A stretch of 64,000 bases of DNA, taken from positions 6,009 through 70,008 of the forward strand of contig JAHDSQ010000031.1 in NCBI GenBank assembly GCA_018432615.1. Direction: 5' to 3'. This DNA is from Clostridia bacterium. Lineage in GTDB: Bacteria > Bacillota > Peptococcia > DRI-13 > SM3-B62. The notes beneath the pieces are model-generated. The model saw nothing but the letters and a program-made list of their open reading frames with translations. It made no database searches and was not told the origin of the DNA. This document shows positions 41,085-64,000 of the stretch, piece by piece; within the stretch, counting starts at the first letter, position 1, and every line of letters starts with the position of its first letter. The translations under genes and the position numbers were made by a program.

Positions 41085-43556
41085 ATGCGGCAACAAATTT
41101 TGCATCGCAGGCATATCAGCGCAGAGCTTGATAATCTGTTCAGTCATCCGCTGACATTGGCAGTAGCGGCTATGGGATATGGCAAAACCACATCGGCTAA
41201 GGACTATCTGAATGAAAAGGCCGTAAGGTATACATGGTTATCAATCGAAAGCGATGAATCATCCCCGCAGTACATCTGGGACTCTCTGACGAGCCAGCTG
41301 GTCAAAGACAAGCCGGAGCCGGGTAAACAGTTACGCGCGTTAGGGTTTCCGGTTGATGCTCCCCAAAGAGAACGGGTTTTAAAGATGATTGAAGACTTAG
41401 TTTATATGACTAATACCGTATTAGTCATTGATGATTACCATCATGTCCATTCCCCGGAACTTGACAAACTGGTGGAACGATTGGTGCGGATGAAGATTGA
41501 GGGATTTCATATCCTGATTCTCTCCCGGACAGTTCCTGAGATAAATATTTATGAATTAACGCTCAAAGGATATTGTTATCAGGTAAAAAGCCGCGTATTT
41601 GAAGTTGGTGCGGCGGAAATAAAGAGCTATTTCGAAATGTACTCCCATAGAATATCCGATGATACGGCAAAACAGGTTCAGGAGATTTCGGAAGGCTGGG
41701 TGTCCGCTGTGTACCTGATTATGCAGAGATATGCCGAAACAGGCAGAGTGGAACCCGGCGAGAGTATTGAAAAGCTGATTGAAACAGCAGTTATGTCTAG
41801 GTATACGGGCAGGGAAGTATTGATATTAAAATCACTTTCCCTCCTTGAAAACTTTACACCGGCACAAGCAGGCTATGTGACCGGGGAGCGGGAAGCCGGA
41901 AAAATCATTCGCAGATTAAGCGAAGAAAATTCCTTTATTCGGTATGATGAAATAAACGGCGTATATCGGATTCATAATATATTAAATAACTACCTGCGAA
42001 AAATCCTTGCGGAGCAACCGGAGAATATTGAGATAGCAGATTTATATAAGCGTTCCGGTCAGTGGTACATTCAAAACGGTGATACTATTTCCGGTCTGAA
42101 ATATCTCTTAAAGGCAAAGGAATATGACCTAATTTTGGCGGAATTCGAAAAAAGTGCTATCAATATCGTGATAGACAGCAATCCCCAATATATCTTGGAA
42201 ATATTTCAGCAGATACCCATGGAAGTAAAATACCGTCATCCCATCGGTTTGCTTGCCTATATCGGCTTTTATGTGACAAATGTTGATCGAAACAAAGGTG
42301 CCTGCCTTCTTGGGGAAATCGAAAAGCATTATCAAAACGATAATATTTCCGCTGTAGTGAAAAAACGCATTGCGGGAGAGATAGAGCTAATCAGAGCCTA
42401 TATCGCCTTTAATGATGCTGCCTTAATGCGGGAAAGGATGATCAGGGCACATGAGATGTTGGAGGGGCATTCGCTGATTGCCAATAAAGATAAGATTATC
42501 ACCTTCGGCTCGCCCCACTCGGCCTACCTATATTATCGTGAAAAAGGGAGATTCTCGTGGAGTGTGCGGTGCGTGCAAGAGATGTTCCCCTATTATTCGG
42601 AAATGGCCGGGGGTTGTGGTAAAGGATTCGACGATTTGCTGCAGGCGGAATACTATCTGGAGACCGGAGAACTGAAGCAGGCTGGGATTTATGCCCGGAA
42701 AGCCATATACAAGGCTCAAGTTTTGGAACAGGTTGATGTGATTTTATGCGGGCGGTTTGTGCTGGCTAGAATTTCTTTGGCTCGGGGCCAAATGAACGAA
42801 GCCTTAGAGGTTATGGACGATTTGAGCGTGGAAGTTGAGGCTTGCAGTATACCTATACTTAGCAGTGCTTTTGATTTGTGTTCCGGTTATATAGGGGCTG
42901 TAAGCGGAACAGACAACCGGATAGCCAACTGGCTGAAGCTGGGGGATATTGAGCAGAGCGAGGTTTTATACCAGGGGATGGGGTTCAATTATATTGTCTA
43001 CGGAAAATACCTTTTGGTTCAGAAGCAATATATCAAACTTGAGGTACTGTGCGAGGAGATGCGGCAGGTATTTTCCTATTTTAATAACCTGCTGGGCTAT
43101 CTTCATGCCTATATATTAGAGGCTGCCGCCAAATACAACCTTTACGGTCTGAAAGAAGCAAAGCCCGCAATTGCGGAGGCTTTGGATATCGGAAGGGCGG
43201 ACGGGATTATATTCCCTATTGCAGAATACGGCCTTCATATTCTCGAACTCCTGCAAGACCTGCAAACAGATTATGAGGGGGATGAGTATTTAGCCGAGCT
43301 TGTAGCCCAAACGACCCAATATTCCGTTAATCAGAAGCGATTTAAGTTCAGGGGGACAAAAAAGCTTGAACTGACAAAGCGTGAGAAGGAGATACTTATG
43401 CTTGTTACAGATGGTAAAACCAACGGGGAGATTGCTGCAGAGCTTTTTCTGGCGGAGGTTACCGTCAGAAAAAACATCACGGCCATCTACCGGAAATTGG
43501 ATGTCGCCGGCAGGGCAGCGGCGGTTAAAAAGGCCCTTATGCTGAAAATAGTATAA
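41085..43556 (+). CDS. LuxR/MalT-like STAND ATPase transcriptional regulator (intact)
   Basis: P-loop AAMGYGKTTSAK, Walker B VLVIDDYHH, long TPR-like middle, and C-terminal LuxR HTH LTKREKEILMLVTDGKTNGEIAAELFLAEVTVRKNITAIYRKLDV. Confidence 0.85.
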   Translation: MRQQILHRRHISAELDNLFSHPLTLAVAAMGYGKTTSAKDYLNEKAVRYTWLSIESDESSPQYIWDSLTSQLVKDKPEPGKQLRALGFPVDAPQRERVLKMIEDLVYMTNTVLVIDDYHHVHSPELDKLVERLVRMKIEGFHILILSRTVPEINIYELTLKGYCYQVKSRVFEVGAAEIKSYFEMYSHRISDDTAKQVQEISEGWVSAVYLIMQRYAETGRVEPGESIEKLIETAVMSRYTGREVLILKSLSLLENFTPAQAGYVTGEREAGKIIRRLSEENSFIRYDEINGVYRIHNILNNYLRKILAEQPENIEIADLYKRSGQWYIQNGDTISGLKYLLKAKEYDLILAEFEKSAINIVIDSNPQYILEIFQQIPMEVKYRHPIGLLAYIGFYVTNVDRNKGACLLGEIEKHYQNDNISAVVKKRIAGEIELIRAYIAFNDAALMRERMIRAHEMLEGHSLIANKDKIITFGSPHSAYLYYREKGRFSWSVRCVQEMFPYYSEMAGGCGKGFDDLLQAEYYLETGELKQAGIYARKAIYKAQVLEQVDVILCGRFVLARISLARGQMNEALEVMDDLSVEVEACSIPILSSAFDLCSGYIGAVSGTDNRIANWLKLGDIEQSEVLYQGMGFNYIVYGKYLLVQKQYIKLEVLCEEMRQVFSYFNNLLGYLHAYILEAAAKYNLYGLKEAKPAIAEALDIGRADGIIFPIAEYGLHILELLQDLQTDYEGDEYLAELVAQTTQYSVNQKRFKFRGTKKLELTKREKEILMLVTDGKTNGEIAAELFLAEVTVRKNITAIYRKLDVAGRAAAVKKALMLKIV

Positions 43557-43597
43557 ATTCATAGGAAATATATCGCATGCGATAATATATTTATTTT

Positions 43598-43632
43598 AAA
43601 AACCCTACTATGATGATAGTAGGGTTTTAATC
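43598..43632 (+). terminator. Rho-independent terminator
   Basis: AAAACCCTACTAT..ATAGTAGGGTTTT hairpin after the LuxR stop. It resembles the hairpin at 30375. Confidence 0.7.
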
Positions 43633-43673: not shown

Positions 43674-43907
43674 GTGCCTCGGATTATTGATGTTATACCC
43701 CACGATGATTATACACTGACCATTGAACTCAACAACCATCATAAAGTCGTTTACGATATGAAGACCAGAATCCAATCATCCCGTTTTTGTGAGCTTGCCG
43801 ATATCAATAAATTCAAAGCTCTGCGGGTCGAATACGGGAAGACACTGGTATGGGACGGCTTATGCCAGATTACCATTGATGAGATTTTAAGCAACCTTGA
43901 ACGTTAA
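43674..43907 (+). CDS. DUF2442-family small protein
   Basis: MPRIIDVIPHDDYTLTIELNNHHKVVYDM...RFCELADINKFKALRVEYGKTLVWDG fits the DUF2442 pattern. 77 aa, like its paralogue at 30466. Confidence 0.7.
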   Translation: MPRIIDVIPHDDYTLTIELNNHHKVVYDMKTRIQSSRFCELADINKFKALRVEYGKTLVWDGLCQITIDEILSNLER

Positions 43908-44046: not shown

Positions 44047-44304
44047 ATGAGTGAGATTAGCAGATTCAATAATGATGTCAGAGAAAACAAGGAAATGTTG
44101 GATGCGGTAAAAGAAATAGGCAACGACCTGGGAAAAGTGGTCGCCTATGCAAATTCCAAGGGGTACGCGATTAGTATTGAAGAGCTGGAGGCGCAAATCA
44201 AAGAGGAAGGGGAACTCTCCGAAGAGAATCTCGATAAAGTGGCGGGAGGACTATCTGCCGTTATAACCGGAGTAGCCGACATCACTATGGTATTAGTCCT
44301 CTAA
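44047..44304 (+). CDS. Nif11-like leader RiPP precursor 1 (68-aa leader ending VAGG, 17-aa core LSAVITGVADITMVLVL)
   Basis: The leader pattern MSEISRF..........L...KEIGNDL..VVAYANSKGY.ISIEEL......ELSEENLDKVAGG fits the Nif11-type leader (TIGR03798 as I recall). RBS AAGGAGAG 6 nt upstream. Confidence 0.85.
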   Translation: MSEISRFNNDVRENKEMLDAVKEIGNDLGKVVAYANSKGYAISIEELEAQIKEEGELSEENLDKVAGGLSAVITGVADITMVLVL

Positions 44305-44341
44305 TCACGGTGAGACGGTATCGTACAATCGAGAAAGGAGG

Positions 44342-44647
44342 ATGATGATGATGTCCGAGCTTGAAAGGTTCACTCAAGCACTTCAAGGTGATAAGGAGCT
44401 GGTGGAAGAACTGAAGTCTAGAGGAAACGATCTGGAAGAGATTGTCCGTTTCGCTAATTCCAAAGGATATAATTTTTCACTGCAGGAGTTGGTTACTGCA
44501 GCGGAAGAAAACGAAACCCTGTCCGAGGAGGAACTGGAGAGTGTAGCGGGTGGGTTTTTGACTTGCCTGGCCGGTGTTTCTTTTCAGATAGGAGATGGGA
44601 CCGGTCTTACGATTGCGGCCAAGGCCAAGGCTTTGGCGGTACTGTAA
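44342..44647 (+). CDS. Nif11-like leader RiPP precursor 2 (core FLTCLAGVSFQIGDGTGLTIAAKAKALAVL, 30 aa)
   Basis: The leader ...GNDLEEIVRFANSKGYNFSLQEL...LSEEELESVAGG is paralogous to precursor 1. There are four consecutive ATGs after GGAGG, and the true start is probably 44348 or 44351. Confidence 0.85.
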   Translation: MMMMSELERFTQALQGDKELVEELKSRGNDLEEIVRFANSKGYNFSLQELVTAAEENETLSEEELESVAGGFLTCLAGVSFQIGDGTGLTIAAKAKALAVL

Positions 44648-44679
44648 AAACTATAAAAGCGGGGAAAGGACAGCGAAAT

Positions 44680-44952
44680 ATGGTTATAAAAGAAATTAAG
44701 CGCTTTAATGAAGCTATACGTCACGACGAAGAACTTCAAAACCGGATCAAGGTCATTGGAGCGAATTTGGAAGAGATTGTCCGTTTCGCCAACCAAAAGG
44801 GATTCGATTTCACGGTAGATGATCTTAAAAAAGCACAAGACGGGGATATTGAGTTGTGCGATGAAGAATTAGAGTCTGTAGCGGGCGGAATCGTTGGTGC
44901 AATTGTGGCGCAGACGATAACAGTTGTCGGACTTGCTATAGTTTGCAATTAA
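44680..44952 (+). CDS. Nif11-like leader RiPP precursor 3 (core IVGAIVAQTITVVGLAIVCN, 20 aa)
   Basis: The ORF track starts at 44563 and overlaps precursor 2. The in-frame ATG at 44680 (MVIKEIKRFNEAI...) follows GGAAAGGA and aligns with the other two leaders. The leader ends CDEELESVAGG. Confidence 0.8.
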   Translation: MVIKEIKRFNEAIRHDEELQNRIKVIGANLEEIVRFANQKGFDFTVDDLKKAQDGDIELCDEELESVAGGIVGAIVAQTITVVGLAIVCN

Positions 44953-44973: not shown

Positions 44974-46407
44974 ATGGCGTTGAGCAGCTCACTGCTTTAT
45001 CAGGATTATATAAAAGGTACGAGCCCCGACGAATTAAAAATCATTGCCAATATCAAACGCTTTTTTGAGTGTATGACCGGTGATCCGGAGTTTCGTGCCG
45101 AGGTGGAAAGTAATATGTCCGGATGCGGACCGCTCTTGGAGTCAAGGGGCGTTTTTGGTGTAGACCCTACCCAGTTAATGGCGTTGTTTTCCAGGGGATC
45201 ATCGGAAGCCGAGCCTTCGGAGTCTGATTTGCAGGACAAGCCCCAGGGGCTGCTGTGGTACCGCTGGTGCAAGACGCATGAAGAATTGCGCCGGGCATGG
45301 AGAAAGCGCAGTGACGGTACACCCAATAAACGCTTTAATCAGTGGCACCGTCGCCAGGTGAACCGCTGCGGCAGTCAGCTGGGTAATTTAACAAACGAGC
45401 AATTAATCCATGCTACCGTTGTTTTTGAATTAACCCAGGGGTGTTCTCTCCAGTGCCCATTTTGCGGCCTGGCAGCCGAACCGCTAAAAAAGGTGTTTCC
45501 ATATACGAAGGAGAACGCCAGGCTGTGGCGGGAGGTGCTGGATGTGTCCGTTAAGCACCTGGGAGATACGGTAGGTACCGGAGTTTGCTACTGGGCGACT
45601 GATCCGACGGATAATCCGGATTATTTGAAGTTTGTGGCCGATTATGGTCAAAAGACGGGTTTTTACCCCCAGACCACAACCTCCGCACCCCTAAGAAAGC
45701 TTCAATGGACCCAGGACTTACTGGGATTCCGACGGCAACATAATACCTCTGTGGATCGCTTTTCAGTGCTTTCCCTTGATGGTCTGCGCCGTATTCATAA
45801 GACGTTTAGCGCGGAAGAGCTGTTATTTACCCAATTGGTTCTGCAGTATATTGATGTCATGAAAAAGGCCATGGCTCGTTCCGGGCGTAATCGACATAGT
45901 GAGGTTGAGCAAGAAGGGCTTGAGACTTTCAAGGATCATACTATCGCCTGTGTAACCGGTTACCTGATAAATATGGCCAAAGGCACGGTACGGCTAATCA
46001 GTCCGTGTCCTCCTTCGGAGATTGCGCCCCTAGGGTATCTCGTCCATACGGAAGGAAGATTCTCTAATGCCGGGGAGCTGGATGAGTTTATCGCCGAAAC
46101 CATGGAAAATTGTATGCCCGAGCATTGCGGGTCTGAAGATATCTTGTCCTTCCGTTGTGACTTGCAGTACGGGGTGTTGGCTAACGGCTTTCAGCTATCC
46201 AATGAATACAAGTCCCACAAGGTAGAGGGTAAACCCTATCTGATTAAGCTGGGAGGACTTATTTCAGGAGGGGATTTGACGTTTTCGCAAGTACTGGAGG
46301 AGATGTCAAAAGAGAGTGCCGATATCTTAGCGGTGATTACCACCATTCAGAAACTGTTTTCCCAAGGATTATTGGCTGACAAGACGGCTTGCGGCGGGAG
46401 GGTTTAG
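44974..46407 (+). CDS. Radical SAM RiPP maturase (Nif11-class; candidate PoyD-like epimerase)
   Basis: A single CxxxCxxC motif (GCSLQCPFCG; Cys codons at 45442, 45454 and 45463) follows a ~150-aa N-terminal extension. It starts 22 nt after precursor 3. The epimerase assignment is inference. Confidence 0.6.
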   Translation: MALSSSLLYQDYIKGTSPDELKIIANIKRFFECMTGDPEFRAEVESNMSGCGPLLESRGVFGVDPTQLMALFSRGSSEAEPSESDLQDKPQGLLWYRWCKTHEELRRAWRKRSDGTPNKRFNQWHRRQVNRCGSQLGNLTNEQLIHATVVFELTQGCSLQCPFCGLAAEPLKKVFPYTKENARLWREVLDVSVKHLGDTVGTGVCYWATDPTDNPDYLKFVADYGQKTGFYPQTTTSAPLRKLQWTQDLLGFRRQHNTSVDRFSVLSLDGLRRIHKTFSAEELLFTQLVLQYIDVMKKAMARSGRNRHSEVEQEGLETFKDHTIACVTGYLINMAKGTVRLISPCPPSEIAPLGYLVHTEGRFSNAGELDEFIAETMENCMPEHCGSEDILSFRCDLQYGVLANGFQLSNEYKSHKVEGKPYLIKLGGLISGGDLTFSQVLEEMSKESADILAVITTIQKLFSQGLLADKTACGGRV

Positions 46408-46410: not shown

Positions 46411-48387
46411 ATGAGTTTAAATAACAAAACCGTTGCCCTGCCCTTTACGTCTGCGGAGGTGTGCCTGGTAAGTATGCCTTACCATAACCCGCATTTGCCG
46501 TCATTAGCCTTGGGCTTGCTACAGGCGGCCTTAATGGCAGAAGGAATCGAAACGAGAAGCGTTTACGCCAACCTCTTGTTTAACGAGCAGTTAGGACATC
46601 CTCTCTATAACCGGCATCACGTTCCTGATCCCAGGTTGCCTTTGGCAGAGTGGTCTTTTTCACCCCTTGCTTTTCCGGGGTTTGACGCCGATGAGGGAAG
46701 GTTTATCAAAGCGACTTATCCCTTGTTAGGCAGAATAAGACGGCAGACTATAGAAGCCTACCGTGAAGAACTTCGCTTTGTACGCCGCCAAGCGGAAGTA
46801 TTTATTAGTGATCTGGCGGAGAAAATCCTCAGTCTGTCGCCACGCATCGTGGGCTGTACATCAAGTCTGGCCCAGAAAGTGCCTTCCTTGGCCTTGTTGC
46901 GGAAAATCCGTGAGCTTGACCCAAAAGTAGTTACTTTAATGGGAGGTGCGGATTGTGAGACAGTGATGGGTCTTGCGGCTCATCAGCATTTCACCTGGCT
47001 TGACTATATCGTGTCAGGGGAAGGGGAAGATTTAATCGTTCCTTTGGTAAACAGTATCTTCGAGTTCAACCGAGAGGTTCCGCCTGACAGGCTGTCCAAA
47101 GGGGTATTTGCTCCTTGTCACAGGGATAGCGGATACCTTGAGATAAAAGAACAGGGAGAGGACAGCTATCGAGCGGTGGCGGAGTCCTTTGGGAGGCAAC
47201 GTCTCCCGCTCTATCAGGACTATTTTGACACATTGGCGCTACTGCCTACCCTGAGCGGTTTAATCCGGCCAAGCCTGCCTATCCAGGCCTCAAGAGGGTG
47301 CTGGTATGGAAAGTGCAAATTTTGCGGTTTGAATGCCCCGGAAATTCCCTACCGCTCACGCCCGTCTGAAGACGTACTTTCTGAAATGGATGAGCTTAAC
47401 GACCGACACGGTGTGACACATTTTGAGTTTCTGGATAACGTCCTTGCTAAGGGGCATATTGATGATTTATTGCCTAAACTTGCGGATAGGGGAGCCCCTT
47501 ATAAGTTGTTTTATGAAATCCGTTCGGATTTGTCGAAAAAGCAAATTGCATCCCTGCGGGCGGCGGGGGTCGTCATTTGCCAACCCGGGATAGAAAGCCT
47601 GCATAGCGAGGCTTTAAGAGCGATGAAAAAAGGGGTTACAAGCTGGCAGAATATCCAGACGTTGAAATGGTGCCGCCAGTATGGCATCAAGGCTAAATGG
47701 TCTATCATACACGATCTTCCGGGGGATCAGGACCACTGGTACCGGGAGATGGCGGAACTTGTTCCCCTGCTGGCTCATTTAAGCGAGCCCATGGGAATGC
47801 TGGAGGTTCAGTATCAACGCTACAGCCATTATTTTGACCACGCTGATGAGTATGGTCTAAAACTGGAACCCCTGTCATTGGACTCGCTGATTTATCCACT
47901 ATCTGAGGAAGTTATCAAGAATCTTTCCTATACACTGGACGACCGGTTCAGTGCCGGGGTTAGAGATAATCCCGGATTAGCTATATTATTTGCTCGTCCG
48001 GGACTGCGGAATTTGAAGAAGGCTGTTATCCGGTGGATGATGGGGGCTGATAATCGGAACGGGCCCATGTTGAGCATGAAAGTGGCTGACGACAAAATAG
48101 TCATCAGTGATTCCCGTTCTGTGGCTACAGCCTCTTCATTTCAGCTTGACGGAGCCGAAAGGGAGATATATCTTCTGTGTGATGAGGCCAGACCGGAGGA
48201 GCAGGTGAGACGGCTCCTGTTGGATAAGGGATATAACGAGCAGACTGTGGATACAGGTATCCACAGTCTGCTGGAAAAGAAAGTGATGCTTCGGGTTGAC
48301 CGACGCTTACTGGCCTTAGCCTTAGAGGAGCCTGTTTTGGAATATATCTCCCCGGATCAGAACCCTATGGGATGGGTGAGTATCTAG
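46411..48387 (+). CDS. B12-binding-domain radical SAM enzyme (RiPP maturation rSAM, TIGR03975-like; candidate C-methyltransferase)
   Basis: The N-terminus VCLVSMPYHNPHLPSLALGLLQAAL is typical of the cobalamin-binding-domain rSAM group found next to Nif11/NHLP precursors. The cluster motif is RGCWYGKCKFCG (Cx4Cx2C as read; Cys codons at 47299, 47314 and 47323). Confidence 0.7.
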   Translation: MSLNNKTVALPFTSAEVCLVSMPYHNPHLPSLALGLLQAALMAEGIETRSVYANLLFNEQLGHPLYNRHHVPDPRLPLAEWSFSPLAFPGFDADEGRFIKATYPLLGRIRRQTIEAYREELRFVRRQAEVFISDLAEKILSLSPRIVGCTSSLAQKVPSLALLRKIRELDPKVVTLMGGADCETVMGLAAHQHFTWLDYIVSGEGEDLIVPLVNSIFEFNREVPPDRLSKGVFAPCHRDSGYLEIKEQGEDSYRAVAESFGRQRLPLYQDYFDTLALLPTLSGLIRPSLPIQASRGCWYGKCKFCGLNAPEIPYRSRPSEDVLSEMDELNDRHGVTHFEFLDNVLAKGHIDDLLPKLADRGAPYKLFYEIRSDLSKKQIASLRAAGVVICQPGIESLHSEALRAMKKGVTSWQNIQTLKWCRQYGIKAKWSIIHDLPGDQDHWYREMAELVPLLAHLSEPMGMLEVQYQRYSHYFDHADEYGLKLEPLSLDSLIYPLSEEVIKNLSYTLDDRFSAGVRDNPGLAILFARPGLRNLKKAVIRWMMGADNRNGPMLSMKVADDKIVISDSRSVATASSFQLDGAEREIYLLCDEARPEEQVRRLLLDKGYNEQTVDTGIHSLLEKKVMLRVDRRLLALALEEPVLEYISPDQNPMGWVSI

Positions 48388-49037: not shown

Positions 49038-49068
49038 GGTGTTATTCCTTTACTCGACAAAGGATTTA

Positions 49069-49109
49069 TTATATAATGACTACAGTATGTGACTGCGGTC
49101 ATTATATAA
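49069..49109. promoter_or_regulatory. Perfect 12-bp inverted repeat in the tetR-MFS divergent intergenic region (candidate operator / paired -10 elements)
   Basis: TTATATAATGAC (49069..49080) and GTCATTATATAA (49098..49109) are separated by 17 nt. Each arm contains TATAAT on its own strand. Confidence 0.35.
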
Positions 49110-58969: not shown

Positions 58970-59515
58970 TTGAATAAAATCGGCAGTCCTTTGGTTGTGG
59001 CGGAAGAATCCGACAGTATTTCCAAGCTGTATCGTGACTACTATCCAAAGCTGTATAAATATACCCTTTACCGGGTAGGCGATTCAGCCACGGCAGAAGA
59101 CTTGGTCAGTGAGGTGTTTACCAAAATGCTGGCCAAATATCACACATATAACCCGGAGCGGGGTAAGTTCAGCACATGGCTTTTTACCATAGCGAATAAT
59201 ACAATTATTAATTACCATAATAAAAATCGCCATTATACTTCCATTGAGCCAAAACAGGCAGATCATAGGAATCCGCCGGAGGATGCGGTTATGAAGAAAG
59301 AATTAAAACATATGCTGGTTCAGGCAGTCATGAAGCTGGATGGGCGCCAGCGAAGCATAATTGCCCTTAAATTCGGTGCTTGTGAGACCAACCGGGAGAT
59401 TGCCCGGATGCTGAATCTGACGGAAAGCAATGTGGGAACGATCCTCTATCGAGCATTACAGCAATTACGGGATATTTTAAAGGAACAAGGCGTAGTGTAT
59501 GATTCGGAAATATAA
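58970..59515 (+). CDS. ECF-type sigma-70 family sigma factor
   Basis: Region 2 (YRDYYPKLYKYTLYRVGDSATAEDLVSEVF...FSTWLFTIANNTIINYH) and region 4 (RQRSIIALKF..ETNREIARMLNLTESNVGTILYRALQQLR). TTG start 6 nt after GAGGTGAG, 36 nt after the ABC gene. Confidence 0.85.
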   Translation: MNKIGSPLVVAEESDSISKLYRDYYPKLYKYTLYRVGDSATAEDLVSEVFTKMLAKYHTYNPERGKFSTWLFTIANNTIINYHNKNRHYTSIEPKQADHRNPPEDAVMKKELKHMLVQAVMKLDGRQRSIIALKFGACETNREIARMLNLTESNVGTILYRALQQLRDILKEQGVVYDSEI

Positions 59516-59530: not shown

Positions 59531-59773
59531 ATGAAGGAAAAACCATCAAAACCGTTTCTGACGGCTGTGGATAAGATTGTATCCGGCAGGCGGCTGAAAC
59601 CGTCAGAATATGAGCAACACGACAAAGAAGATCAAGAACTGCTTTCTCTTGCGCAGGTGCTGGCGGAGGGGGTTTCAGCTGTGCAAAACGATGAATTGGC
59701 AGACGATGAGCTGGATATGGTGGCGGGGGGCGTAAACCCCAACGCATTACCCAACAAAAAAGATAAGCCTTAA
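59531..59773 (+). CDS. Small soluble protein in the anti-sigma position, carrying a double-glycine leader-type motif (..DDELDMVAGG / VNPNALPNKKDKP)
   Basis: It starts 6-15 nt after the sigma stop (GTG 59522 or ATG 59531 after GAGGTGAGG). There is no TM segment and no zinc-finger Cys/His. Residues just before GG match the (D/E)(D/E)xL(D/E)xVAGG ends of the six precursors in this locus. Confidence 0.55.
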   Translation: MKEKPSKPFLTAVDKIVSGRRLKPSEYEQHDKEDQELLSLAQVLAEGVSAVQNDELADDELDMVAGGVNPNALPNKKDKP

Positions 59774-59788: not shown

Positions 59789-59820
59789 TATGTGGAAAAA
59801 TGTGTGGAAAATCTGTGATA
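59789..59820 (+). promoter_or_regulatory. TGTG(A/G) direct-repeat motif upstream of the HExxH gene
   Basis: ATATGTGGAAAAATGTGTGGAAAATCTGTGATA. Confidence 0.3.
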
Positions 59821-59893
59821 CTTTTGCCGCTGGCTTGTATAAGTAAACAGGAAAGGTAAAAACGAGACCGGAAGCGACGATGGGAAGAAAGGG

Positions 59894-60928
59894 GTGTCTG
59901 CTATTATGCCCGGATTAAAGTTATTAAAGGAAAATCATTTTACGCATACCGAGTCCTTATCCCGGGAGCAGATGCCTCTTGCGGACGAGCTTTTTGTGCA
60001 AGCCTGGGAAGATTATATCCGAAACATACCCGGTTTGGGCGTCTTGGGAGCCTTGCAGCAAGGACTGGTCCAGCTTTGTTTCCCAATCCGGGAGGGAATG
60101 AGTACCAATCAAGATTACCTGCAGGCAACCCGCCGGGGGGCCAATCCGACAGAATTTGAAAGTGCTGAGGGTATCAGACTTGAGAATTCGGAGGGGCTGA
60201 AGGTTTATTTATATCAGACTCCGGCAGGCCGAATTCCTGTCTTGGAAACTAAAAGCCGCCGGGATTTTGAATCCCTAATCCGGGCTATATGTTACAAAAA
60301 TGAACCGATTGCTATCCCCGCGTCCCTGGGAGCCTTTATGATCAAAGGATACAACAATTGGGACAGGGTAGCCCGGTATAAGCGAAAGTGCGGACAGTCC
60401 TTTGACTTTAATTATATGAAAGCCAACCGGGAGCTATATCAAGACACCTTCCTCATTTTGACCGATGCCGAATACAGCGGTGTAGCGGCAGAGATGTTGG
60501 GGATGGCGAAAGAGGAATGGCGCAGGCTGTCCTTAATAATCCGCAGGGAGCATGAAGCCACCCATTATTTTACCCAGCGCTTTCTTGGCTCCGCCAAGAA
60601 TCATCCTCTTGATGAGTTTATCGCTGATTATATGGGTATAGTAGCCGCCCTCGGCTACTATCGAGCAGACTGGTTTCTTTGTTTTATGGGACTGGAGGAA
60701 TACCCCGCTTTCCGAGCGGGAGGTCGGTTGACCAATTACCTGGAAAACAAAGAATTATCTCAGAGGGAATTTGACGAATTAAAGAGTTGTCTCAAAAGAG
60801 CGGCTGAAAACGTCGAAAGGCTTGGCACAGAGAACCCCGATATTTATTCTCCCCAAGGCAGGTATGAAATGCTGCTGCGTTTGTCCCAAAGTAATTTGTT
60901 AGCTTTGGCTGAAAACCTTTTTACATAA
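59894..60928 (+). CDS. Hypothetical protein with an HExxH motif (possible metallopeptidase)
   Basis: 344 aa, with REHEATHYF (HEATH) about 110 aa from the C-terminus and an acidic residue downstream (HPLDEFIADY). No signal peptide or TM segment. Family not recognised. Confidence 0.4.
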   Translation: MSAIMPGLKLLKENHFTHTESLSREQMPLADELFVQAWEDYIRNIPGLGVLGALQQGLVQLCFPIREGMSTNQDYLQATRRGANPTEFESAEGIRLENSEGLKVYLYQTPAGRIPVLETKSRRDFESLIRAICYKNEPIAIPASLGAFMIKGYNNWDRVARYKRKCGQSFDFNYMKANRELYQDTFLILTDAEYSGVAAEMLGMAKEEWRRLSLIIRREHEATHYFTQRFLGSAKNHPLDEFIADYMGIVAALGYYRADWFLCFMGLEEYPAFRAGGRLTNYLENKELSQREFDELKSCLKRAAENVERLGTENPDIYSPQGRYEMLLRLSQSNLLALAENLFT

Positions 60929-60984: not shown

Positions 60985-61020
60985 CGTGTGAAGTTTGAAA
61001 AGCATGTGAACCTATGAAAA
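60985..61020 (+). promoter_or_regulatory. TGTGA direct-repeat motif upstream of precursor 4
   Basis: CGTGTGAAGTTTGAAAAGCATGTGAACCTATGAAAA. The TTGAAA(A)GCATGT part also occurs at 43962..43975, upstream of precursor 1. Confidence 0.3.
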
Positions 61021-61037
61021 AGAAAGGATGGATCGAA

Positions 61038-61394
61038 GTGGCAACAAATTTTGAATTATTGCAGGCAAAACTGGAGGCAGACCCGGCTTTTGGGAAAAAA
61101 CTGATTGAACTGGAAACGGCAGAGGAAGCCCAAAGAATCTTAAAAGCAGAAGGAATGGAATTTACAGTGGAAGAGCTCAACTCTTTTGCTGAGGCGGTAA
61201 ACAAATACGGGGACAGCGAGGGCGAGCTTTCCGACGAAGCCCTGGAGGGCGTAGCCGGCGGTGTTGCTCTGGCCACCGTTGCGGCAGCGGCGACACTTTT
61301 CTCAATTGGCGATAGTATGACCGGCGGCCATGTCAGGAGAGCAGTTTCCAGCGGGGTCAGACGGGCGGCCAGGCGTATTTTCAGAGGTTGGTAA
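61038..61394 (+). CDS. Long Nif11-like leader RiPP precursor 4 (43-aa core VALATVAAAATLFSIGDSMTGGHVRRAVSSGVRRAARRIFRGW)
   Basis: Leader ATNFELLQAKLEADPAFGKKLIELETAEEAQRILKAEGMEFTVEEL...ELSDEALEGVAGG. The GTG at 61038 sits 6-8 nt after AAAGGATGG. The track start ATG 61014 lies inside a conserved upstream motif that reads GTG in the sister copy. Confidence 0.8.
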   Translation: MATNFELLQAKLEADPAFGKKLIELETAEEAQRILKAEGMEFTVEELNSFAEAVNKYGDSEGELSDEALEGVAGGVALATVAAAATLFSIGDSMTGGHVRRAVSSGVRRAARRIFRGW

Positions 61395-61413
61395 GCAGAG
61401 TAAAGTAAAAAAA

Positions 61414-61431
61414 CATGTGAATCTGTGAAAA
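61414..61431 (+). promoter_or_regulatory. TGTGA direct-repeat motif upstream of precursor 5
   Basis: CATGTGAATCTGTGAAAA. Confidence 0.3.
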
Positions 61432-61448
61432 AGAAAGGATGGATTGAA

Positions 61449-61805
61449 ATGGCGACAAGTTTTGAATTATTACAGGCGAAACTGGAGGCAGACCCGGCTT
61501 TTGGGAAAAAACTCGTTGAACTGGAAACGGCAGAGGAAGCCCAAAGCTTCTTAAAAGCAGAAGGCTTGGAATTCACGGTGGAAGAGCTTAAGTCTTTTGC
61601 TGAGGCGGTAAACAAATACGGGGACAGCGATGGCGAGCTTTCCGAAGAAGCCTTAGAAGGCGTAGCCGGCGGTGTTGCCCTTGCCACCGTTGCAGCGACG
61701 GCGACGATAGTGTCGGTTACTGATGATATGACCGGCGGTCATGTCAGAAGAACTGTTTCCAGTGGTGTCAGGCGGGCGGCCAGGCGCGTTTTCAGAGGGT
61801 GGTAA
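61449..61805 (+). CDS. Long Nif11-like leader RiPP precursor 5 (core VALATVAATATIVSVTDDMTGGHVRRTVSSGVRRAARRVFRGW)
   Basis: Tandem paralogue of precursor 4. The ATG at 61449 follows the same RBS; the track start is GTG 61425. Confidence 0.8.
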   Translation: MATSFELLQAKLEADPAFGKKLVELETAEEAQSFLKAEGLEFTVEELKSFAEAVNKYGDSDGELSEEALEGVAGGVALATVAATATIVSVTDDMTGGHVRRTVSSGVRRAARRVFRGW

Positions 61806-61841: not shown

Positions 61842-61904
61842 ATTTGAATTTTCGCGGATTCAGTATGATTCGAATAGTGAAAAATGAGGGTTGGAGGGGA
61901 AAAT

Positions 61905-62279
61905 ATGGAAAACCAAATTTTATCGACCTTAGAGTTGAATGAATTAATCGGCAAGAAAGCGGCTGAAGACGAAGCATTTCGACTTGCTTTGTTAAGCGAT
62001 CCCAAAGCGGCTTTGGAAAAGGAATTGGGAGTGGTGATTCCGGAAGATATTAAAATAGAGGTGCATGTGGAAAGCATGAAGTCCCTGCATCTGATTATAC
62101 CGCCTGCCAATACCGACGAACTGACGGATGATGATCTGGAATCGGTCGCCGGCGGTGCCGCCTCTTTTAGGCCGGATGTAATAATGATGTATGCCGTGCG
62201 TCCGCCTTCTGATTTCAAAAAAGGTGGCGGAACCGGGAGTCCGGCCTGGCGAGTAGCATTAGAAAAATTCAGAAAATGA
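61905..62279 (+). CDS. NHLP (nitrile-hydratase-like) leader RiPP precursor 6 (40-aa Cys-free core AASFRPDVIMMYAVRPPSDFKKGGGTGSPAWRVALEKFRK)
   Basis: The leader LIGKKAAEDEAFRLALLSDPKAALEKELGVVIPEDIKIEVHVESMKSLHLIIPP....LTDDDLESVAGG fits the NHLP pattern (TIGR03793 as I recall). The ATG at 61905 follows GGAGGGG; the track start at 61884 is less likely. Confidence 0.85.
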   Translation: MENQILSTLELNELIGKKAAEDEAFRLALLSDPKAALEKELGVVIPEDIKIEVHVESMKSLHLIIPPANTDELTDDDLESVAGGAASFRPDVIMMYAVRPPSDFKKGGGTGSPAWRVALEKFRK

Positions 62280-63823
62280 TAATCCAACGACCGATAACAG
62301 CAGTTTGGGAGATTACCATGGGTTGCAACATGCGCTGCAAACACTGCGGCTCTGCCTGCCATGACGTTCTCCCGGGAGAGTTGACGACAACAGAAGCCCT
62401 GCGGTTATGCGATGATATTGGCAAGCTTGGGATGAAGTGGATTACTTTATCCGGCGGTGAGCCGACCACCCGGAAAGACTGGCCGGACATTGCCGGAAGG
62501 TTGAAGGAGCGGGGTGTGGCTACCACTATAATTACCAATGGATGGCTCTTTGACGAGGTAATTCTGGAACAGGCAATTCAGGCCGGAGTCGCTACCATAG
62601 GCTTCAGCCTGGACGGCCTTCAGGAAACACACGATTTCATGCGCCGGGAGGGTTCTTACCAAAAGATTATGAAGGCTATTGAACTGTGCCTTAGCAGAAA
62701 CATGCACGCTACCGCCATTACCACGGTCAATAAAAAGAACCTGGGCGAGCTGGACAGGATAAAACAAGAATTGGCGGACAGAGGGGTCAAGGAATGGCAG
62801 GTTCAGATGGGTTGTCCCATGGGCAATATGGCTGAACACGACGATTTAGTCTTAGAGCCTACTGATATGGATACGATTATTGATTTGGCTTATCGGTGTA
62901 TGCAGGAGTCTTCGCTTAAAATCAACCTGGGTGACTGTGTCGGCTACTATAGTCTGCAAGAAATACAGATGGCCAAATACAGCCGGGAAAGCATCTATTG
63001 CCCTCAGTGTACTGCCGGAAAATATACCTTCGGTATCCTGCATAACGGGGATATTGTGGGATGTACTTCCATCAGGGATCCTGAGTTTACGGAAGGTAAT
63101 ATCAGGAAAACTCCCCTGAAAGAGATCTGGGAGAATCCGGACAGTTTCAGATGGAGCCGCACCATGAAAAAAGAAGACCTGCAGGGTTTTTGCGGAGTAT
63201 GTCGTTTTGCCGATGATTGCCTGGGCGGGTGTCCGAATTCCAGGTTAACCATGGGAGGCAGCATTTACGCAGAAAATCGTTACTGTTCTTATTTTCAGGC
63301 CGTTCAGAAAAGAATTCGCATCTTTGAAGAAATACAGGATTTCGACGAACTGGCGGCAATGGGCCGAAGCTTTACGGAAAAAGGATACTGGCAGTTGGCT
63401 GAAACCGCATTAAGCGTGGCCCTGGGCAGGCAAGGTGCGGATAGCGATTCTGGGCTTTTGAGCCATTATGGGTATGTGAATTTCAGGCTAGGTAATTATC
63501 ATGTTGCCCTGGAAGCAAACGAGAAGCTGTTGCAAAGAAGCCCTACTGATGTATACGGACTTAAAGGAAAAGGATTGTGCTTACTACGTATGGGTAAGAC
63601 GGAAGAGGGAATCGAACTGCTGAAAAGGGCTATGGCTTTGACGGATGAAAGCTTTATGGATCCCTATTATGATTTGGCTATTGCCTTGTCGGAAATAGGT
63701 CGTGAGAAGGAAGCAATGGCAGTTCTTGAAGAAGGCCGTAAGAAGTCGGAGGGCTTTGTGGACCAAAGCGAGGATTTGTATCAGAAGTTGGCGGATAGTG
63801 CTAAAAAAGCTGTGGGGGTTTAG
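62276..63823 (+). CDS. Radical SAM / SPASM-domain peptide maturase with a C-terminal TPR domain
   Basis: GCNMRCKHCG (CxxxCxxC) at the N-terminus. SPASM-type Cys set CPQC...GCTS...GFCGVCRFADDCLGGCPNS. The last ~170 aa are TPR-like (YWQLAETALSVAL..., NYHVALEANEKLLQ..., GKTEEGIELLKRAMAL...). Its start ATG overlaps the precursor stop (ATGA at 62276..62279). Confidence 0.85.
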   Translation: MIIQRPITAVWEITMGCNMRCKHCGSACHDVLPGELTTTEALRLCDDIGKLGMKWITLSGGEPTTRKDWPDIAGRLKERGVATTIITNGWLFDEVILEQAIQAGVATIGFSLDGLQETHDFMRREGSYQKIMKAIELCLSRNMHATAITTVNKKNLGELDRIKQELADRGVKEWQVQMGCPMGNMAEHDDLVLEPTDMDTIIDLAYRCMQESSLKINLGDCVGYYSLQEIQMAKYSRESIYCPQCTAGKYTFGILHNGDIVGCTSIRDPEFTEGNIRKTPLKEIWENPDSFRWSRTMKKEDLQGFCGVCRFADDCLGGCPNSRLTMGGSIYAENRYCSYFQAVQKRIRIFEEIQDFDELAAMGRSFTEKGYWQLAETALSVALGRQGADSDSGLLSHYGYVNFRLGNYHVALEANEKLLQRSPTDVYGLKGKGLCLLRMGKTEEGIELLKRAMALTDESFMDPYYDLAIALSEIGREKEAMAVLEEGRKKSEGFVDQSEDLYQKLADSAKKAVGV

Positions 63824-63824
63824 C

Positions 63825-64000
63825 ATGAGCAAGGCAAAGGAAAGACAGCCGGGGTTTAAAGACCTGCAGGATATTTTTAAGGAAATATCCCAAAAGGCGG
63901 CGGTGGACGGAGCATATCGGGAATTATGCCTGAAAGACGCTCAGGCCGCTATCCGGGAAGTAGCGGGGCAGGAGATAGAAATTCTTGAAGGGATTGTTTT
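63825..64000 (+). CDS. Further small ORF, possibly another NHLP-like leader peptide (3' end cut by the window)
   Basis: The ATG is 1 nt after the rSAM stop. MSKAKERQPGFKDLQDIFKEISQKAAVDGAYRELCLKDAQAAIREVAGQEIEILEGIV resembles the ..A..D..FR..LL.DP.AAI.E..G.EIPEG.. part of NHLP leaders. Confidence 0.45.
   Translation, partial: MSKAKERQPGFKDLQDIFKEISQKAAVDGAYRELCLKDAQAAIREVAGQEIEILEGIV

Follow-up and report, generated by a model that had tools for sequence, protein, structure and literature searches.

Gene content of the locus

The window (the whole 64-kb stretch of DNA that was analysed) was found to carry the following genes and features from position 41085 to its end, with family matches and, for precursors, core sequences in brackets:

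41085..43556, plus strand, MalT/LuxR-type regulator (Pfam GerE, TPR_MalT, AAA_22)
43674..43907, plus strand, DUF2442 small protein (Pfam PF10387, 26.3 bits, cut-off 23.9)
44047..44304, plus strand, Nif11 precursor 1 (TIGR03798, 44.6 bits, cut-off 32.3)
44342..44647, plus strand, Nif11 precursor 2 (TIGR03798, 54.8 bits; core FLTCLAGVSFQIGDGTGLTIAAKAKALAVL)
44677..44952, plus strand, Nif11 precursor 3 (TIGR03798, 64.0 bits; core IVGAIVAQTITVVGLAIVCN)
44974..46407, plus strand, PoyD-family radical SAM (rSAM) peptide epimerase, L- to D-residues (TIGR04517, 445 bits, cut-off 325)
46411..48387, plus strand, B12-binding radical SAM RiPP C-methyltransferase, rSAM_ocin_1 (TIGR03975, 562.8 bits, cut-off 281.85)
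48408..49037, minus strand, TetR-family repressor, divergent from the exporter operon (NCBIfam TetR-type matches)
49209..51473, plus strand, MFS transporter (Pfam MFS_1, residues 370-677)
51484..52629, plus strand, Peripla_BP_6 substrate-binding lipoprotein (Pfam PF13458, E 4.8e-43)
52657..54000, plus strand, HlyD-type NHLP bacteriocin secretion protein (TIGR03794, 354 bits, cut-off 156.2)
54059..56218, plus strand, C39 peptidase/permease/ATPase exporter, PCAT (TIGR03796, 1088.9 bits, cut-off 853.3)
56252..58933, plus strand, second ABC permease/ATPase subunit of the NHLP export set (TIGR03797, 921.3 bits, cut-off 709.4)
58970..59515, plus strand, ECF sigma factor with sigma-2 and sigma-4 domains (Pfam Sigma70_r2, r4_2; TIGR02937, 118 bits, cut-off 42.9)
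59531..59773, plus strand, small double-glycine (GG) protein of 80 aa (ribosome-binding site GAGGTGAGG, then ATG)
59814..59845, plus strand, bipartite promoter-like motif TGTGATAC-N14-TGTATAAGTA, occurring once in the window
59894..60928, plus strand, DUF7005 HExxH protein (PF22541, 388 bits)
61014..61394, plus strand, long Nif11 precursor 4 (TIGR03798, 38.6 bits, cut-off 32.3; core VALATVAAAATLFSIGDSMTGGHVRRAVSSGVRRAARRIFRGW)
61425..61805, plus strand, long Nif11 precursor 5, tandem paralogue of precursor 4 (TIGR03798, 37.4 bits)
61884..62279, plus strand, NHLP precursor 6 (TIGR03793, 74.2 bits, cut-off 50.9; core AASFRPDVIMMYAVRPPSDFKKGGGTGSPAWRVALEKFRK)
62276..63823, plus strand, radical SAM/SPASM enzyme (rSAM3) with a C-terminal TPR domain (Pfam Radical_SAM, SPASM, TPR)
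63825..64000, plus strand, start of another gene, truncated at position 64000 (translation MSKAKERQPGFKDLQDIFKEISQKAAVDGAYRELCLKD...)

The gene calls of an earlier note on this DNA for the MalT/LuxR regulator, ECF sigma factor, TetR, MFS and HExxH proteins were borne out by family matches, as were its three different rSAM enzymes (PoyD-family, rSAM_ocin_1 and rSAM/SPASM-TPR). The locus contains several layers of regulation. The end that the note gave for it, position 64000, is the edge of the window, and a new ORF begins at 63825.

Leader-end motif and precursors

A six-frame scan of the full window for L[DE]x[VI][ASV]GG returned exactly seven matches, compared with a chance expectation of 0.06 (mean of 50 mononucleotide shuffles). 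All seven ORFs lie on the plus strand between 44.0 and 62.3 kb (44047-44304, 44342-44647, 44677-44952, 59531-59773, 61014-61394, 61425-61805 and 61884-62279). The near-identical leader ends previously quoted for these ORFs were correct, and the common motif reaches further N-terminal (ELx[DE][DE]xL[DE]xVAGG), with ELxxExLExVAGG common to all six precursors. The seven had been described as leader-bearing substrates; this holds for the six Nif11/NHLP RiPP precursors, but the seventh, the protein following the sigma gene, is a partner of the ECF sigma factor and not an ordinary RiPP substrate. Similarly, of the three or more unrelated leader architectures that had been proposed, Nif11 and NHLP are both present, but the 'short' and 'long' Nif11 leaders belong to one family, with TIGR03798 covering both and all five proteins scoring above its cut-off.

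Upstream module

The first module is a standard set of PoyD-type epimerase and B12 C-methyltransferase. Nif11 precursor 1 possesses a 68-aa leader ending in EENLDKVAGG, followed by the core LSAVITGVADITMVLVL. For Nif11 precursor 2, the gene caller places the start at 44351. The MalT/LuxR-type regulator, whose match to NCBIfam MalT (E 5e-50) lies below the family cut-off, is the probable activator of this proteusin-type module. The same gene order (MalT, three Nif11 precursors, PoyD, B12 methyltransferase) was found in locus L087, where the precursor trio again adjoins the exporter. Orthologues of cores 1 and 2 were identified in L087 and L090, and of core 3 in L087, L090 and L088. As the module is present without a nearby exporter in L090 and L088, its link to the export cassette is facultative.

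Export cassette

The canonical three-gene NHLP set was found once in the window, in agreement with the single C39-ABC exporter with HlyD and second ABC partner reported before. In a Pfam scan of the 1-41 kb region, none of the ten largest ORFs was an exporter; other exporters may lie elsewhere in the genome. The N-terminus of the C39 exporter contains QMEAVECGAASL, HWNFNHFVVL and NDPG, which, read by eye, would supply the catalytic Gln/Cys, His and Asp, respectively.

Divergent sigma-70-like promoter matches were located at 49049-49077 (plus strand) and 49129-49101 (minus strand). The MFS transporter carries an N-terminal extension of approximately 360 aa, and the substrate-binding lipoprotein has the lipobox LVGC (by-eye reading). 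Homologues of the MFS gene were found 5’ of the SBP-HlyD-ABC-ABC genes in 16 of 80 loci, opening the conserved cassette in relatives, while substrate-binding protein homologues occur in 33/80 DUF7005 loci across phyla. The order MFS-SBP-HlyD-ABC-ABC-ECF-smallGG-DUF7005 is found again in Desulfotomaculia-, Peptococcaceae- and Syntrophomonadaceae-like contigs, and the MFS and substrate-binding genes belong to the conserved exporter cassette in relatives. The co-occurrence check proposed earlier showed that the sub-modules recur beside the same cassette in relatives, so that chance does not account for their lying side by side.

ECF sigma factor, small GG protein and promoter-like motif

The small GG protein consists of an N-terminal helical hairpin, the segment ELADDELDMVAGG and a 13-aa tail, VNPNALPNKKDKP. 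An AF2 model places helices at residues 7-17, 24-27 and 32-49, with low confidence over residues 50-80. Members of the family are few, with 23 representatives in a set of 1.84 billion proteins. The gene occurs only directly behind this ECF sigma gene, -22 to +33 nt after the stop codon in 25/25 loci with a strong match. The dN/dS of 0.16-0.44 indicates purifying selection, and because of this the ORF is a real gene. The encoded protein belongs with the ECF sigma factor, as its obligate partner, and not among the precursors.

The family alignment has ten invariant columns, of which seven, along with the near-invariant G66, fall within ELxDDELDMVAGG; we take these columns to be the C39-recognition positions of the double-glycine leader literature. 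The best reading of the protein is that of an anti-sigma-like regulator that would be recognised by the C39 peptidase of the exporter. Against this, cleavage at the GG would take off just the 13-aa tail, with no obvious route to inactivation of the N-terminal part. No sequence or fold similarity to known anti-sigma domains was detected, Pfam gave nothing relevant at E values up to 5, and Foldseek gave no match below E 2, with RslA at rank 17 only. The best PDB profile match was to a Nif11 domain (E 0.11).

The promoter-like motif has the pattern TGTG[AC]TAC-N14-TGTATAA, and its strict form was found directly 3’ of the small GG gene in 21/25 loci. Variants were seen in at least L012 and L021, and in L027 the motif sits 365 nt further downstream. 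Elsewhere only three matches occurred (1.34 Mb, both strands), with none in loci lacking the small GG gene. The motif is kept beside the sigma pair though the next gene varies, being mostly DUF7005, but Nif11 with PoyD and methyltransferase in L023, Nif11 in L024 and NHLP in L027. The motif is a putative promoter for recognition by the ECF sigma factor, although classical ECF promoters have a longer spacing than the N14 seen here.

DUF7005 protein

DUF7005 possesses an invariant H220-E221-x-x-H224 and E241. The exporter was found in the flank of 61/80 DUF7005 loci from many phyla, and in that of 35 of the 39 loci whose flanks extend 8 kb or more each way; ABC2 lies directly 5’ of DUF7005 in 45/80. 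A role as maturase of the tandem precursor pair was rejected, the linkage across phyla being to the exporter. Instead, DUF7005 is an accessory protein conserved alongside the NHLP exporter, with a putative role as a cytoplasmic metallopeptidase. With its AF2 model (pLDDT 87), however, no solved fold was matched, nor was there a significant match to any solved metallopeptidase, and the protein could alternatively be an alpha-ketoglutarate-dependent oxygenase, an activity that some HExxH proteins of RiPP clusters have (PMC12636437).

Downstream precursors and their probable maturases

The true start of NHLP precursor 6 is probably at 61905, and the cores in relatives have AYGVPxPGGxGWKWP in common. 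rSAM3 scores below the TIGR03913 and TIGR04103 cut-offs. An NHLP gene lies 5’ of its orthologue (-72 to +26 nt) in 10/10 loci, and on this gene order rSAM3 is the predicted dedicated maturase of the NHLP precursor.

For precursor 4, the cores in relatives end in ...RGRW or RGW. Compared by eye, the translation MSKAKERQPGFKDLQDIFKEISQKAAVDGAYRELCLKD... is similar to L013:13415-13663, and its homologue in relatives is an 82-aa protein opening a conserved block. In L013 this gene is followed by those for a peptide arginase (EEHHEAF, DSHED, LDIDLDYFSC; motifs as given in PMC12703449), a 251-aa protein, a 340-aa rSAM/SPASM enzyme and an ABC_sub_bind protein. Nif11 ...RGRW precursors are accompanied by the arginase/rSAM4 block at about a dozen loci. 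The tandem Arg-rich precursors are probably matured by the peptide arginase and fourth rSAM/SPASM enzyme, whose genes lie 3’ of the rSAM3 orthologue in relatives. At the present locus this position falls beyond 64000.

Proposed organisation and comparison with known systems

On balance, we favour a modular RiPP island composed of one conserved export-and-control cassette and two cargo modules, with export-linked sigma control. The cassette would comprise the divergent TetR gene, MFS, substrate-binding lipoprotein, HlyD, C39-ABC, second ABC, ECF sigma factor, small GG protein, promoter-like motif and DUF7005. The upstream cargo would be the MalT/LuxR-associated proteusin-type module, with its three hydrophobic Nif11 precursors, PoyD-family epimerase and B12 radical SAM C-methyltransferase. 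The downstream cargo operon, behind the promoter-like motif, would encode the two Arg-rich long Nif11 precursors, then the NHLP precursor, predicted to be translationally coupled to its rSAM/SPASM-TPR enzyme, and would extend beyond position 64000, into a part that in relatives holds the genes for the peptide arginase and fourth rSAM.

All six precursors are presumably cleaved after the GG and exported via the single C39-ABC exporter. DUF7005 may serve this exporter, for example by clearing long released leaders, rather than act as a core maturase. The N-terminal helical hairpin of the small GG protein would bind the ECF sigma factor and keep it inactive, and its invariant double-glycine motif may allow it either to be processed by the C39 domain or to compete for it. 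In this way, how active the sigma factor is, and hence how far the downstream cargo operon is transcribed, would depend on exporter presence and load.

The earlier view that this combination is not a described system is weak: exporter sharing is already published, Haft et al. (2010) having reported joint clusters of NHLP and Nif11 precursors that use this exporter in common, with maturases mixed and matched (PMC2887384). A mix-and-match RiPP island around one common exporter is thus a known design. The regulatory module of ECF sigma factor and small GG protein appears to be undescribed; what is new is a small, conserved ECF-adjacent protein that bears the cleavage signal of the exporter and may tie gene expression to export. 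The control proposed here would resemble that by FlgM, an anti-sigma factor that leaves the cell through the flagellar apparatus.

Double-glycine leader ends and precursor peptides

When all six frames of the 64-kb window were searched for the pattern L[DE]x[VI][ASV]GG, exactly seven matches were returned (compared to 0.06 in shuffled sequence), all of them on the plus strand between 44.0 and 62.3 kb and within the ORFs that the earlier note had singled out for their near-identical leader ends. That observation was therefore confirmed; the strings quoted for it were correct, and the common motif was found to be longer than quoted (ELx[DE][DE]xL[DE]xVAGG).

Features of the double-glycine locus

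44047-44952, plus strand: three short Nif11-leader precursors (precursors 1-3)
58970-59515: ECF sigma factor gene
59531-59773, plus strand: small double-glycine (GG) protein, 80 aa
59814-59845: promoter-like motif, single occurrence in the window
61014-61394 and 61425-61805, plus strand: tandem pair of long Nif11-leader precursors (precursors 4 and 5)
61884-62279, plus strand: NHLP-leader precursor (precursor 6)
62276-63823: third radical SAM enzyme gene (rSAM3)
63825-64000: homologue of an 82-aa gene, 2 nt after the rSAM3 gene and running past the window end

Five of these ORFs, all GG-ended, matched the Nif11 leader model TIGR03798 (44.6, 54.8, 64.0, 38.6 and 37.4 bits, cut-off 32.3), while ORF 61884-62279, also with a GG end, matched the NHLP leader model TIGR03793 (74.2 bits, cut-off 50.9). 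As both the short ORFs (44047-44952) and the long ORFs of 126 aa (61014-61805) score above the TIGR03798 cut-off, they belong to one leader family, and the earlier description of short and long Nif11 leaders as unrelated architectures had to be abandoned. The six precursors are presumably cut after the GG and leave the cell through a single exporter.

The exporter and its conserved cassette

All three components of this exporter were identified with curated models, namely the HlyD-type protein (TIGR03794, 354 bits, cut-off 156.2), the C39-peptidase ABC exporter (TIGR03796, 1088.9 bits, cut-off 853.3) and a second ABC subunit that lacks the peptidase (TIGR03797, 921.3 bits, cut-off 709.4). The N-terminus of the C39 domain carries QMEAVECGAASL, HWNFNHFVVL and NDPG, which by eye correspond to the catalytic Gln/Cys, His and Asp. 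No exporter was found among the ten largest ORFs between 1 and 41 kb. They comprise restriction and defence genes and proteins of surface-layer type, besides two of regulatory or signalling type, namely a GHKL ATPase and an AAA/Trans_reg_C protein.

Within this remaining part of the window, positions 96-4752 encode an AlwI-type restriction endonuclease and a large TOTE conflict-system primase/helicase/PLD nuclease protein, a defence island that appears to have no relation to the RiPP locus. Several very large surface proteins with PKD, fibronectin-III, cadherin-like, RCC1-repeat and SLH domains are encoded at 9374-34520. These proteins point to an S-layer organism; the nearest relatives found are Peptococcaceae- and Desulfotomaculum-like.

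Related loci were gathered around homologues of the small GG protein, around DUF7005, the HExxH protein family of the window (PF22541; one genome per species, 80 loci), and around homologues of the PoyD-family epimerase, and were annotated with the window's own proteins. The best matches among GTDB representatives were a Peptococcaceae MAG (75%) and Desulforamulus aeronauticus (71%). The MFS protein and the binding lipoprotein were found to be conserved parts of the cassette in relatives, the binding protein being kept across phyla; of the 80 loci, 33 have a Peripla_BP_6 binding protein alongside the cassette and 16 the long MFS protein. In the window the two genes occupy 49209-52629; the MFS protein possesses an N-terminal extension of approximately 360 aa ahead of its transporter domain, and the gene after it is that of the Peripla_BP_6 lipoprotein.

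The exporter operon, reaching from the MFS gene to the small GG gene, is divergent from the TetR gene, and sigma-70-like sites are present in the intergenic region between the two; except for these divergent sites, a scan for sigma-70 promoters and terminators was unremarkable. The gap between the second ABC gene and the ECF sigma gene is 36 nt, and the sigma factor and its partner are thus probably made together with the exporter.

An exporter-linked HExxH protein

DUF7005 was found to follow the exporter. A C39-ABC or second ABC gene lies in the flank of 61/80 DUF7005 loci, a share that reaches 35/39 where at least 8 kb is available on both sides, and in 45/80 loci DUF7005 comes straight after the second ABC gene, with both on one strand. 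The exporter-flanked loci span Bacillota, Cyanobacteria, Bacteroidota, Acidobacteriota, Myxococcota, Actinomycetota and others. The protein had been proposed to be the maturase of the tandem Nif11 pair, a candidate role that was rejected since DUF7005 tracks the exporter in phyla lacking such precursors. From this tracking, whatever the core type, we infer a core-independent role, most plausibly the hydrolysis of the long leaders once they are released.

It is unlikely that DUF7005, instead of being a peptidase, modifies core peptides as an HExxH iron/alpha-ketoglutarate oxygenase or as a tailoring enzyme of another kind. In favour of such an enzyme, a confident AF2 model (pLDDT 87) gave no significant fold match to solved structures, metallopeptidases included, and HExxH proteins of RiPP clusters have repeatedly proved to be hydroxylases (PMC12636437). 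However, H220-E221-x-x-H224 and E241 are invariant in 13 diverse members, and an invariant HExxH followed by a Glu 17 residues later resembles the gluzincin signature. Linkage to the exporter across phyla and very different core types also argues against a tailoring function. Furthermore, no NCBIfam family was matched at E values up to 0.01, and DUF7005 thus does not match TIGR04267, which we take to be the model for the HExxH hydroxylases (alpha-ketoglutarate HExxH beta-hydroxylase, IPR026337). No paper on DUF7005 was found in the literature searched.

The ECF sigma factor and the small GG protein

A profile search of 1.84 billion representative proteins returned 23 members of the small GG family, 14 of them at E values below 1e-10. 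At all 25 loci with strong matches the small GG gene starts between -22 and +33 nt from the stop codon of the ECF sigma gene, and strong matches were confined to loci that also have an ECF sigma match. The small GG gene retains this place behind the sigma gene also where the pair is located after DUF7005, and regardless of the cargo that follows. Comparison of the gene with its orthologues gave dN/dS values of 0.16-0.44, which shows purifying selection. Ten columns are invariant when the family is aligned, and seven of them, together with the near-invariant G66, fall within the ELxDDELDMVAGG stretch; conservation extends to the N-terminal part as well as to the GG motif, with the 13-aa tail after the GG being hydrophilic, Lys-rich and poorly conserved. 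Residues 7-49 were modelled by AF2 as a helical hairpin (block-mean pLDDT 74-89 for residues 1-50), the remainder being of low confidence.

Distant relatives were observed to keep the N-terminal part and the GG, followed by a Cys-rich, zinc-ribbon-like tail of approximately 35 aa (CxxC...CPxCGH). Three of these copies adjoin an ECF sigma gene (L032, L048 and L082) and the fourth lies at a contig edge (L020).

Cys-tailed relatives of the small GG protein, in related loci

L032:163-525
L048:9244-9678
L082:8058-8495
L020:3-212

Neither TIGR03798 nor the Pfam Nif11 family matched the small GG protein. Alignment to Nif11 leaders with hhalign gave a probability of 90% over its last ~35 residues, which fell to 0.5% once the last 14 residues (the GG end) were removed, and the best match in a profile search of the PDB was a Nif11 domain protein (weak, E 0.11). 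Descent of the N-terminal part from a divergent Nif11 precursor was rejected, the hhalign similarity being confined to the leader end. Anti-sigma Pfam families were matched by none of the 23 members at E values up to 5, no anti-sigma factor was returned by the PDB profile search, and Foldseek of the model gave no match below E 2, with the anti-sigma factor RslA at rank 17 (E 6.8). Nothing joining anti-sigma factors with double-glycine or C39 exporters was found in the literature searched, and the ECF classification paper makes no mention of C39, bacteriocin or HlyD contexts.

A promoter-like motif behind the sigma/GG pair

A bipartite motif with the consensus AAAnnnTGTG[AC]TACTTTT-N9-TTGTATAA[GA]TAAaTAGAA was identified 3' of the small GG gene. 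It is present by strict pattern in 21/25 small GG loci, with variants in at least L012 and L021, and in L027 it is situated 365 nt further downstream; loci without a small GG gene had none. Elsewhere in 1.34 Mb (both strands) there were three matches, of which two precede precursor genes that belong to the same clusters. The motif stays with the sigma/GG pair though gene order and the next gene vary. Most loci have DUF7005 in that place, while L023 has a Nif11 precursor with PoyD and methyltransferase genes, L024 a Nif11 precursor and L027 an NHLP precursor.

ECF-type promoters have two conserved blocks, of the type ...AC and GTATA, separated by a spacer. The motif, with an ...AC block, a GTATA block and a variable spacer, resembles these and is regarded as a putative ECF-type promoter. 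An extra or displaced copy lies directly upstream of a precursor gene at L021:14281 and at L027:12331, suggesting that duplication of the motif can recruit more cargo genes. Short direct repeats (TGTGGAAAAA, TGTGTGGAAAATC and TGTGATAC, approximately 11-12 nt apart) were also seen at 59790-59821, just upstream of the motif; they are not visible in the intergenic regions of relatives.

A possible export-gated checkpoint

From its gene context, the small GG protein may act through an anti-sigma mechanism, a tentative assignment that falls somewhat short of being probable. It would keep the ECF sigma factor inactive by means of its N-terminal hairpin, and through the end that resembles a leader it would be bound or cut as a client by the exporter's C39 domain. 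Removal or titration of the protein by an exporter that is working and unoccupied would release the sigma factor. The latter would then fire the promoter at 59814-59845 and so switch on DUF7005, the Arg-rich Nif11 precursors and the NHLP pair, together with the enzymes further downstream. By competing for the same C39 site, precursors would feed back on the switch, with DUF7005 as a dedicated peptidase clearing released leaders, the cut small GG protein included. The complete scheme would be an export-gated checkpoint on transcription for peptide natural products, with a new kind of GG-signalled anti-sigma factor that C39 binds or cuts, the promoter at 59814-59845 as target and DUF7005 as leader-clearing peptidase; it is possible but less likely than not.

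A quite unlikely alternative is that the small GG protein is a pheromone precursor of the ComC/BlpC kind, whose exporter-cut tail builds up extracellularly and, on being detected, switches the ECF sigma factor on; the sensor might be the binding lipoprotein or else the MFS protein, which has an additional domain. The small GG family shows the pattern of such precursors, a conserved leader with a variable mature part, and the cassette does encode a binding protein located outside the cell, as well as the MFS protein with its long extra N-terminal part. However, the leader would be 67 aa in length, with its first ~50 residues forming the predicted hairpin, the tail is strongly hydrophilic, and distant members (L032, L048, L082) end in the zinc-ribbon-like extension and not in a short peptide. 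No protein of the locus matched a histidine kinase or a response-regulator receiver domain, the MalT-type regulator matching response-regulator families over its C-terminal DNA-binding domain only. Tight translational coupling to the sigma gene is, moreover, the classical signature of a direct protein partner.

Still less likely is the reading of the earlier note, in which each of the seven GG ORFs is a RiPP or bacteriocin substrate with an exported C-terminal product, and the HExxH protein matures the tandem pair. Most gene calls made there were upheld by curated family models, and the interpretation given there found partial support. The perfect double-glycine leader end, the Nif11 similarity over the last ~35 residues in hhalign, the Nif11 domain protein returned from the PDB and the location of DUF7005 directly upstream of the tandem pair are all in keeping with this reading. 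It would however require the little-conserved, Lys-rich 13-aa tail to be the core, next to a conserved N-terminal part and GG, and the first 50 residues show no Nif11 homology after removal of the GG end. The coupling to the ECF sigma gene in 25/25 loci, which holds after DUF7005 and before any cargo, and the linkage of DUF7005 to exporters in phyla without such precursors also speak against it.

If the small GG protein is indeed an exporter-gated anti-sigma factor, it would show producers matching the synthesis of potentially toxic precursors to their export capacity. It would also offer a compact, portable switch for silent clusters, by deletion of the small gene or over-expression of the sigma factor.

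Cargo modules

The module upstream of the exporter contains a PoyD-family rSAM epimerase (TIGR04517, 445 bits, cut-off 325) and a B12-dependent rSAM RiPP C-methyltransferase (TIGR03975, 562.8 bits, cut-off 281.85), a pair that marks it as a proteusin-type set for which D-residues and C-methyls are predicted. Core by core, its three precursors can be paired with clear orthologues in both L087 and L090. In L087 (PoyD at 76% identity) the MalT gene, three Nif11 precursors, PoyD and the methyltransferase again abut the exporter, and in L090, L088 and L089 the module occurs alone, without an exporter within 10 kb. The proteusin module is clearly separable from the cassette. The sigma-linked motif is absent from this module in the window, and the module is probably under the control of the adjacent MalT-type regulator. 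In L088 and L089, which are JGI metagenome contigs (~9200-13300), PoyD has 81% identity, the closest outside this organism and a near-identical strain. The module there looks decayed, with only a 45-aa remnant of precursor 3 and the methyltransferase split into 439 aa and 182 aa.

Downstream of the cassette, rSAM3 is an rSAM/SPASM protein with a TPR tail that scored under the cut-offs of its nearest models; no identical protein was on record for it. An NHLP precursor was found -72 to +26 nt upstream of the rSAM3 orthologue in 10/10 loci, with the cores of relatives sharing AYGVPxPGGxGWKWP, and by this gene linkage the two are a predicted dedicated precursor-enzyme pair. No characterised NHLP/SPASM enzyme fitting a GWKWP core was found in the literature searched.

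Cores of the long Nif11 family end in ...RGRW or RGW, with a conserved C-terminal Trp. An internal conserved '(D)xMTGGH' was observed ahead of their Arg-rich C-terminal half (61014-61805 in the window; L002:11460-11801 and L013:11104-11457), and is a possible further cleavage site or hinge. In about a dozen loci the long Nif11 precursors are accompanied by a conserved block of genes, in some cases without the NHLP pair.

Conserved block in a related locus

L013:13415-17510: in order, an 82-aa protein, a UPF0489 protein, a 251-aa protein, a 340-aa rSAM/SPASM protein and ABC_sub_bind

By eye the N-terminus of the 82-aa protein is NHLP-like, with no GG, and the 251-aa protein has no family match. 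The UPF0489 protein of L013 matched the peptide arginase model NF052474 with an E value of 1.3e-81, its 274 bits falling short of the cut-off of 350, and contains EEHHEAF, DSHED and LDIDLDYFSC, motifs of the types listed as signatures in PMC12703449. The pairing of long Nif11 precursors with this arginase block makes their Arg-rich cores (HVRRAVSSGVRRAARRIFRGW) probable substrates for Arg-to-ornithine conversion. The enzymes for the Arg-rich cores, a likely fourth rSAM enzyme among them, are probably encoded shortly after position 64000.

Unity of the locus

The order of cassette, sigma/GG pair, DUF7005, long Nif11 precursors, NHLP precursor and rSAM gene was kept in L002, L008, L013 and others at substantially different sequence and, with the proteusin module at the exporter in L087, co-occurrence of the sub-modules in relatives was thereby established. 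The cargo modules are conserved units moving around the cassette, and an architecture of modules arranged around one cassette is very probable for the locus as a whole. Chance juxtaposition of independent clusters, each using any exporter at hand, is highly improbable, for while the proteusin module can occur alone (L090, L088, L089) and many precursors lie far from an exporter according to passages of Haft et al. 2010 (PMC2887384), the cassette-to-rSAM order is conserved in diverged relatives (L002, L008, L013 and others), L087 likewise has the proteusin module next to the exporter, a PoyD/methyltransferase module lies directly behind the sigma-linked motif in L023, and leader ends are near-identical across modules.

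Comparison with known systems

Passages of Haft, Basu and Mitchell 2010 (PMC2887384) describe NHLP and Nif11 precursors that cluster together with a three-gene exporter, leader conservation driven by the transporter and not by the maturases, maturases and exporters that are mixed and matched, and 12 NHLP and seven Nif11 precursors in Pelotomaculum thermopropionicum. On these passages, one exporter for many cores is an established idea, known since 2010, and the locus is not the undescribed kind of system that it had been taken for. The window agrees with the NHLP/N11P export cassette of that paper in having all three exporter families and both leader families above curated cut-offs, and with the wider system in its paralogous precursors with divergent cores and a common GG end, its clustering of NHLP with N11P and its mixed maturases. 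It differs in its ECF sigma/GG pair, the word 'sigma' occurring zero times in the text of the paper, and in that the passages describe a three-gene transport cluster only, to which DUF7005 and the binding lipoprotein (with the MFS protein and the sigma pair in this clade) are added here.

No description of the exporter-embedded sigma/GG/motif set or of exporter-linked DUF7005 was found in the literature searched. The 2010 account of the NHLP exporter is extended in three ways: by a fourth conserved partner in DUF7005, by a conserved binding protein (joined by an MFS protein in this clade), and by the embedded ECF sigma/GG/motif set. The RiPP chemistry of the locus widens known families, with epimerase/C-methyltransferase peptides, probable ornithine-containing Nif11 peptides and an NHLP precursor with an rSAM/SPASM enzyme.

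The polytheonamide pathway comprises the precursor PoyA, the epimerase PoyD and the C-methyltransferases PoyB/C. Proteusin pathways of this kind share with the window a TIGR04517 epimerase and a TIGR03975 methyltransferase beside hydrophobic, beta-branched cores, whereas the cores here are 17-30 aa in length, the leaders are Nif11 and not NHLP, and the host is, judged by its nearest relatives, an anaerobic Firmicute. The landornamide pathway combines the Nif11-type precursor OspA with the epimerase OspD and the peptide arginase OspR. A similar arrangement is found in relatives, where Arg-rich Nif11 precursors co-occur with a three-motif peptide arginase; the arginase gene does not lie inside the window.

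In the prochlorosin system, one promiscuous maturation and export system handles many Nif11-leader substrates, the common element being a single lanthionine synthetase. The likeness to prochlorosins, which are mentioned in PMC10783134, is that of one leader-recognising machine serving many divergent cores by way of a conserved Nif11 leader. They differ in that it is the exporter that is shared in the window, with each core family having its own rSAM enzymes.

In streptococci and lactobacilli, C39-ABC transporters are well known to export double-glycine pheromones, which have conserved leaders and variable mature parts. ComC/ComAB and BlpC/BlpAB resemble the locus in that a C39-ABC exporter reads a GG leader end, and in that the exporter is tied to the bacteriocin genes by regulation. 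ComC/BlpC-type leaders are far shorter than 67 aa, and signalling proceeds by a two-component system, while the small GG protein has a partly structured 67-aa part before the GG and is paired with an ECF sigma factor, with no histidine kinase or receiver match.

Export-coupled anti-sigma factors are known in FlgM, which acts on sigma-28 and leaves by flagellar export, and in Bordetella BtrA, which acts on BtrS and is linked to type III secretion. The small GG protein has no sequence or fold relationship to either, and its export route would be a C39 ABC exporter, with a double-glycine signal. It is like FlgM and BtrA in being a small, soluble protein encoded by a sigma-adjacent gene and apparently bearing the export signal of a dedicated machine. 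By analogy with them, it would couple the transcription of late or cargo genes to the presence of a working exporter.
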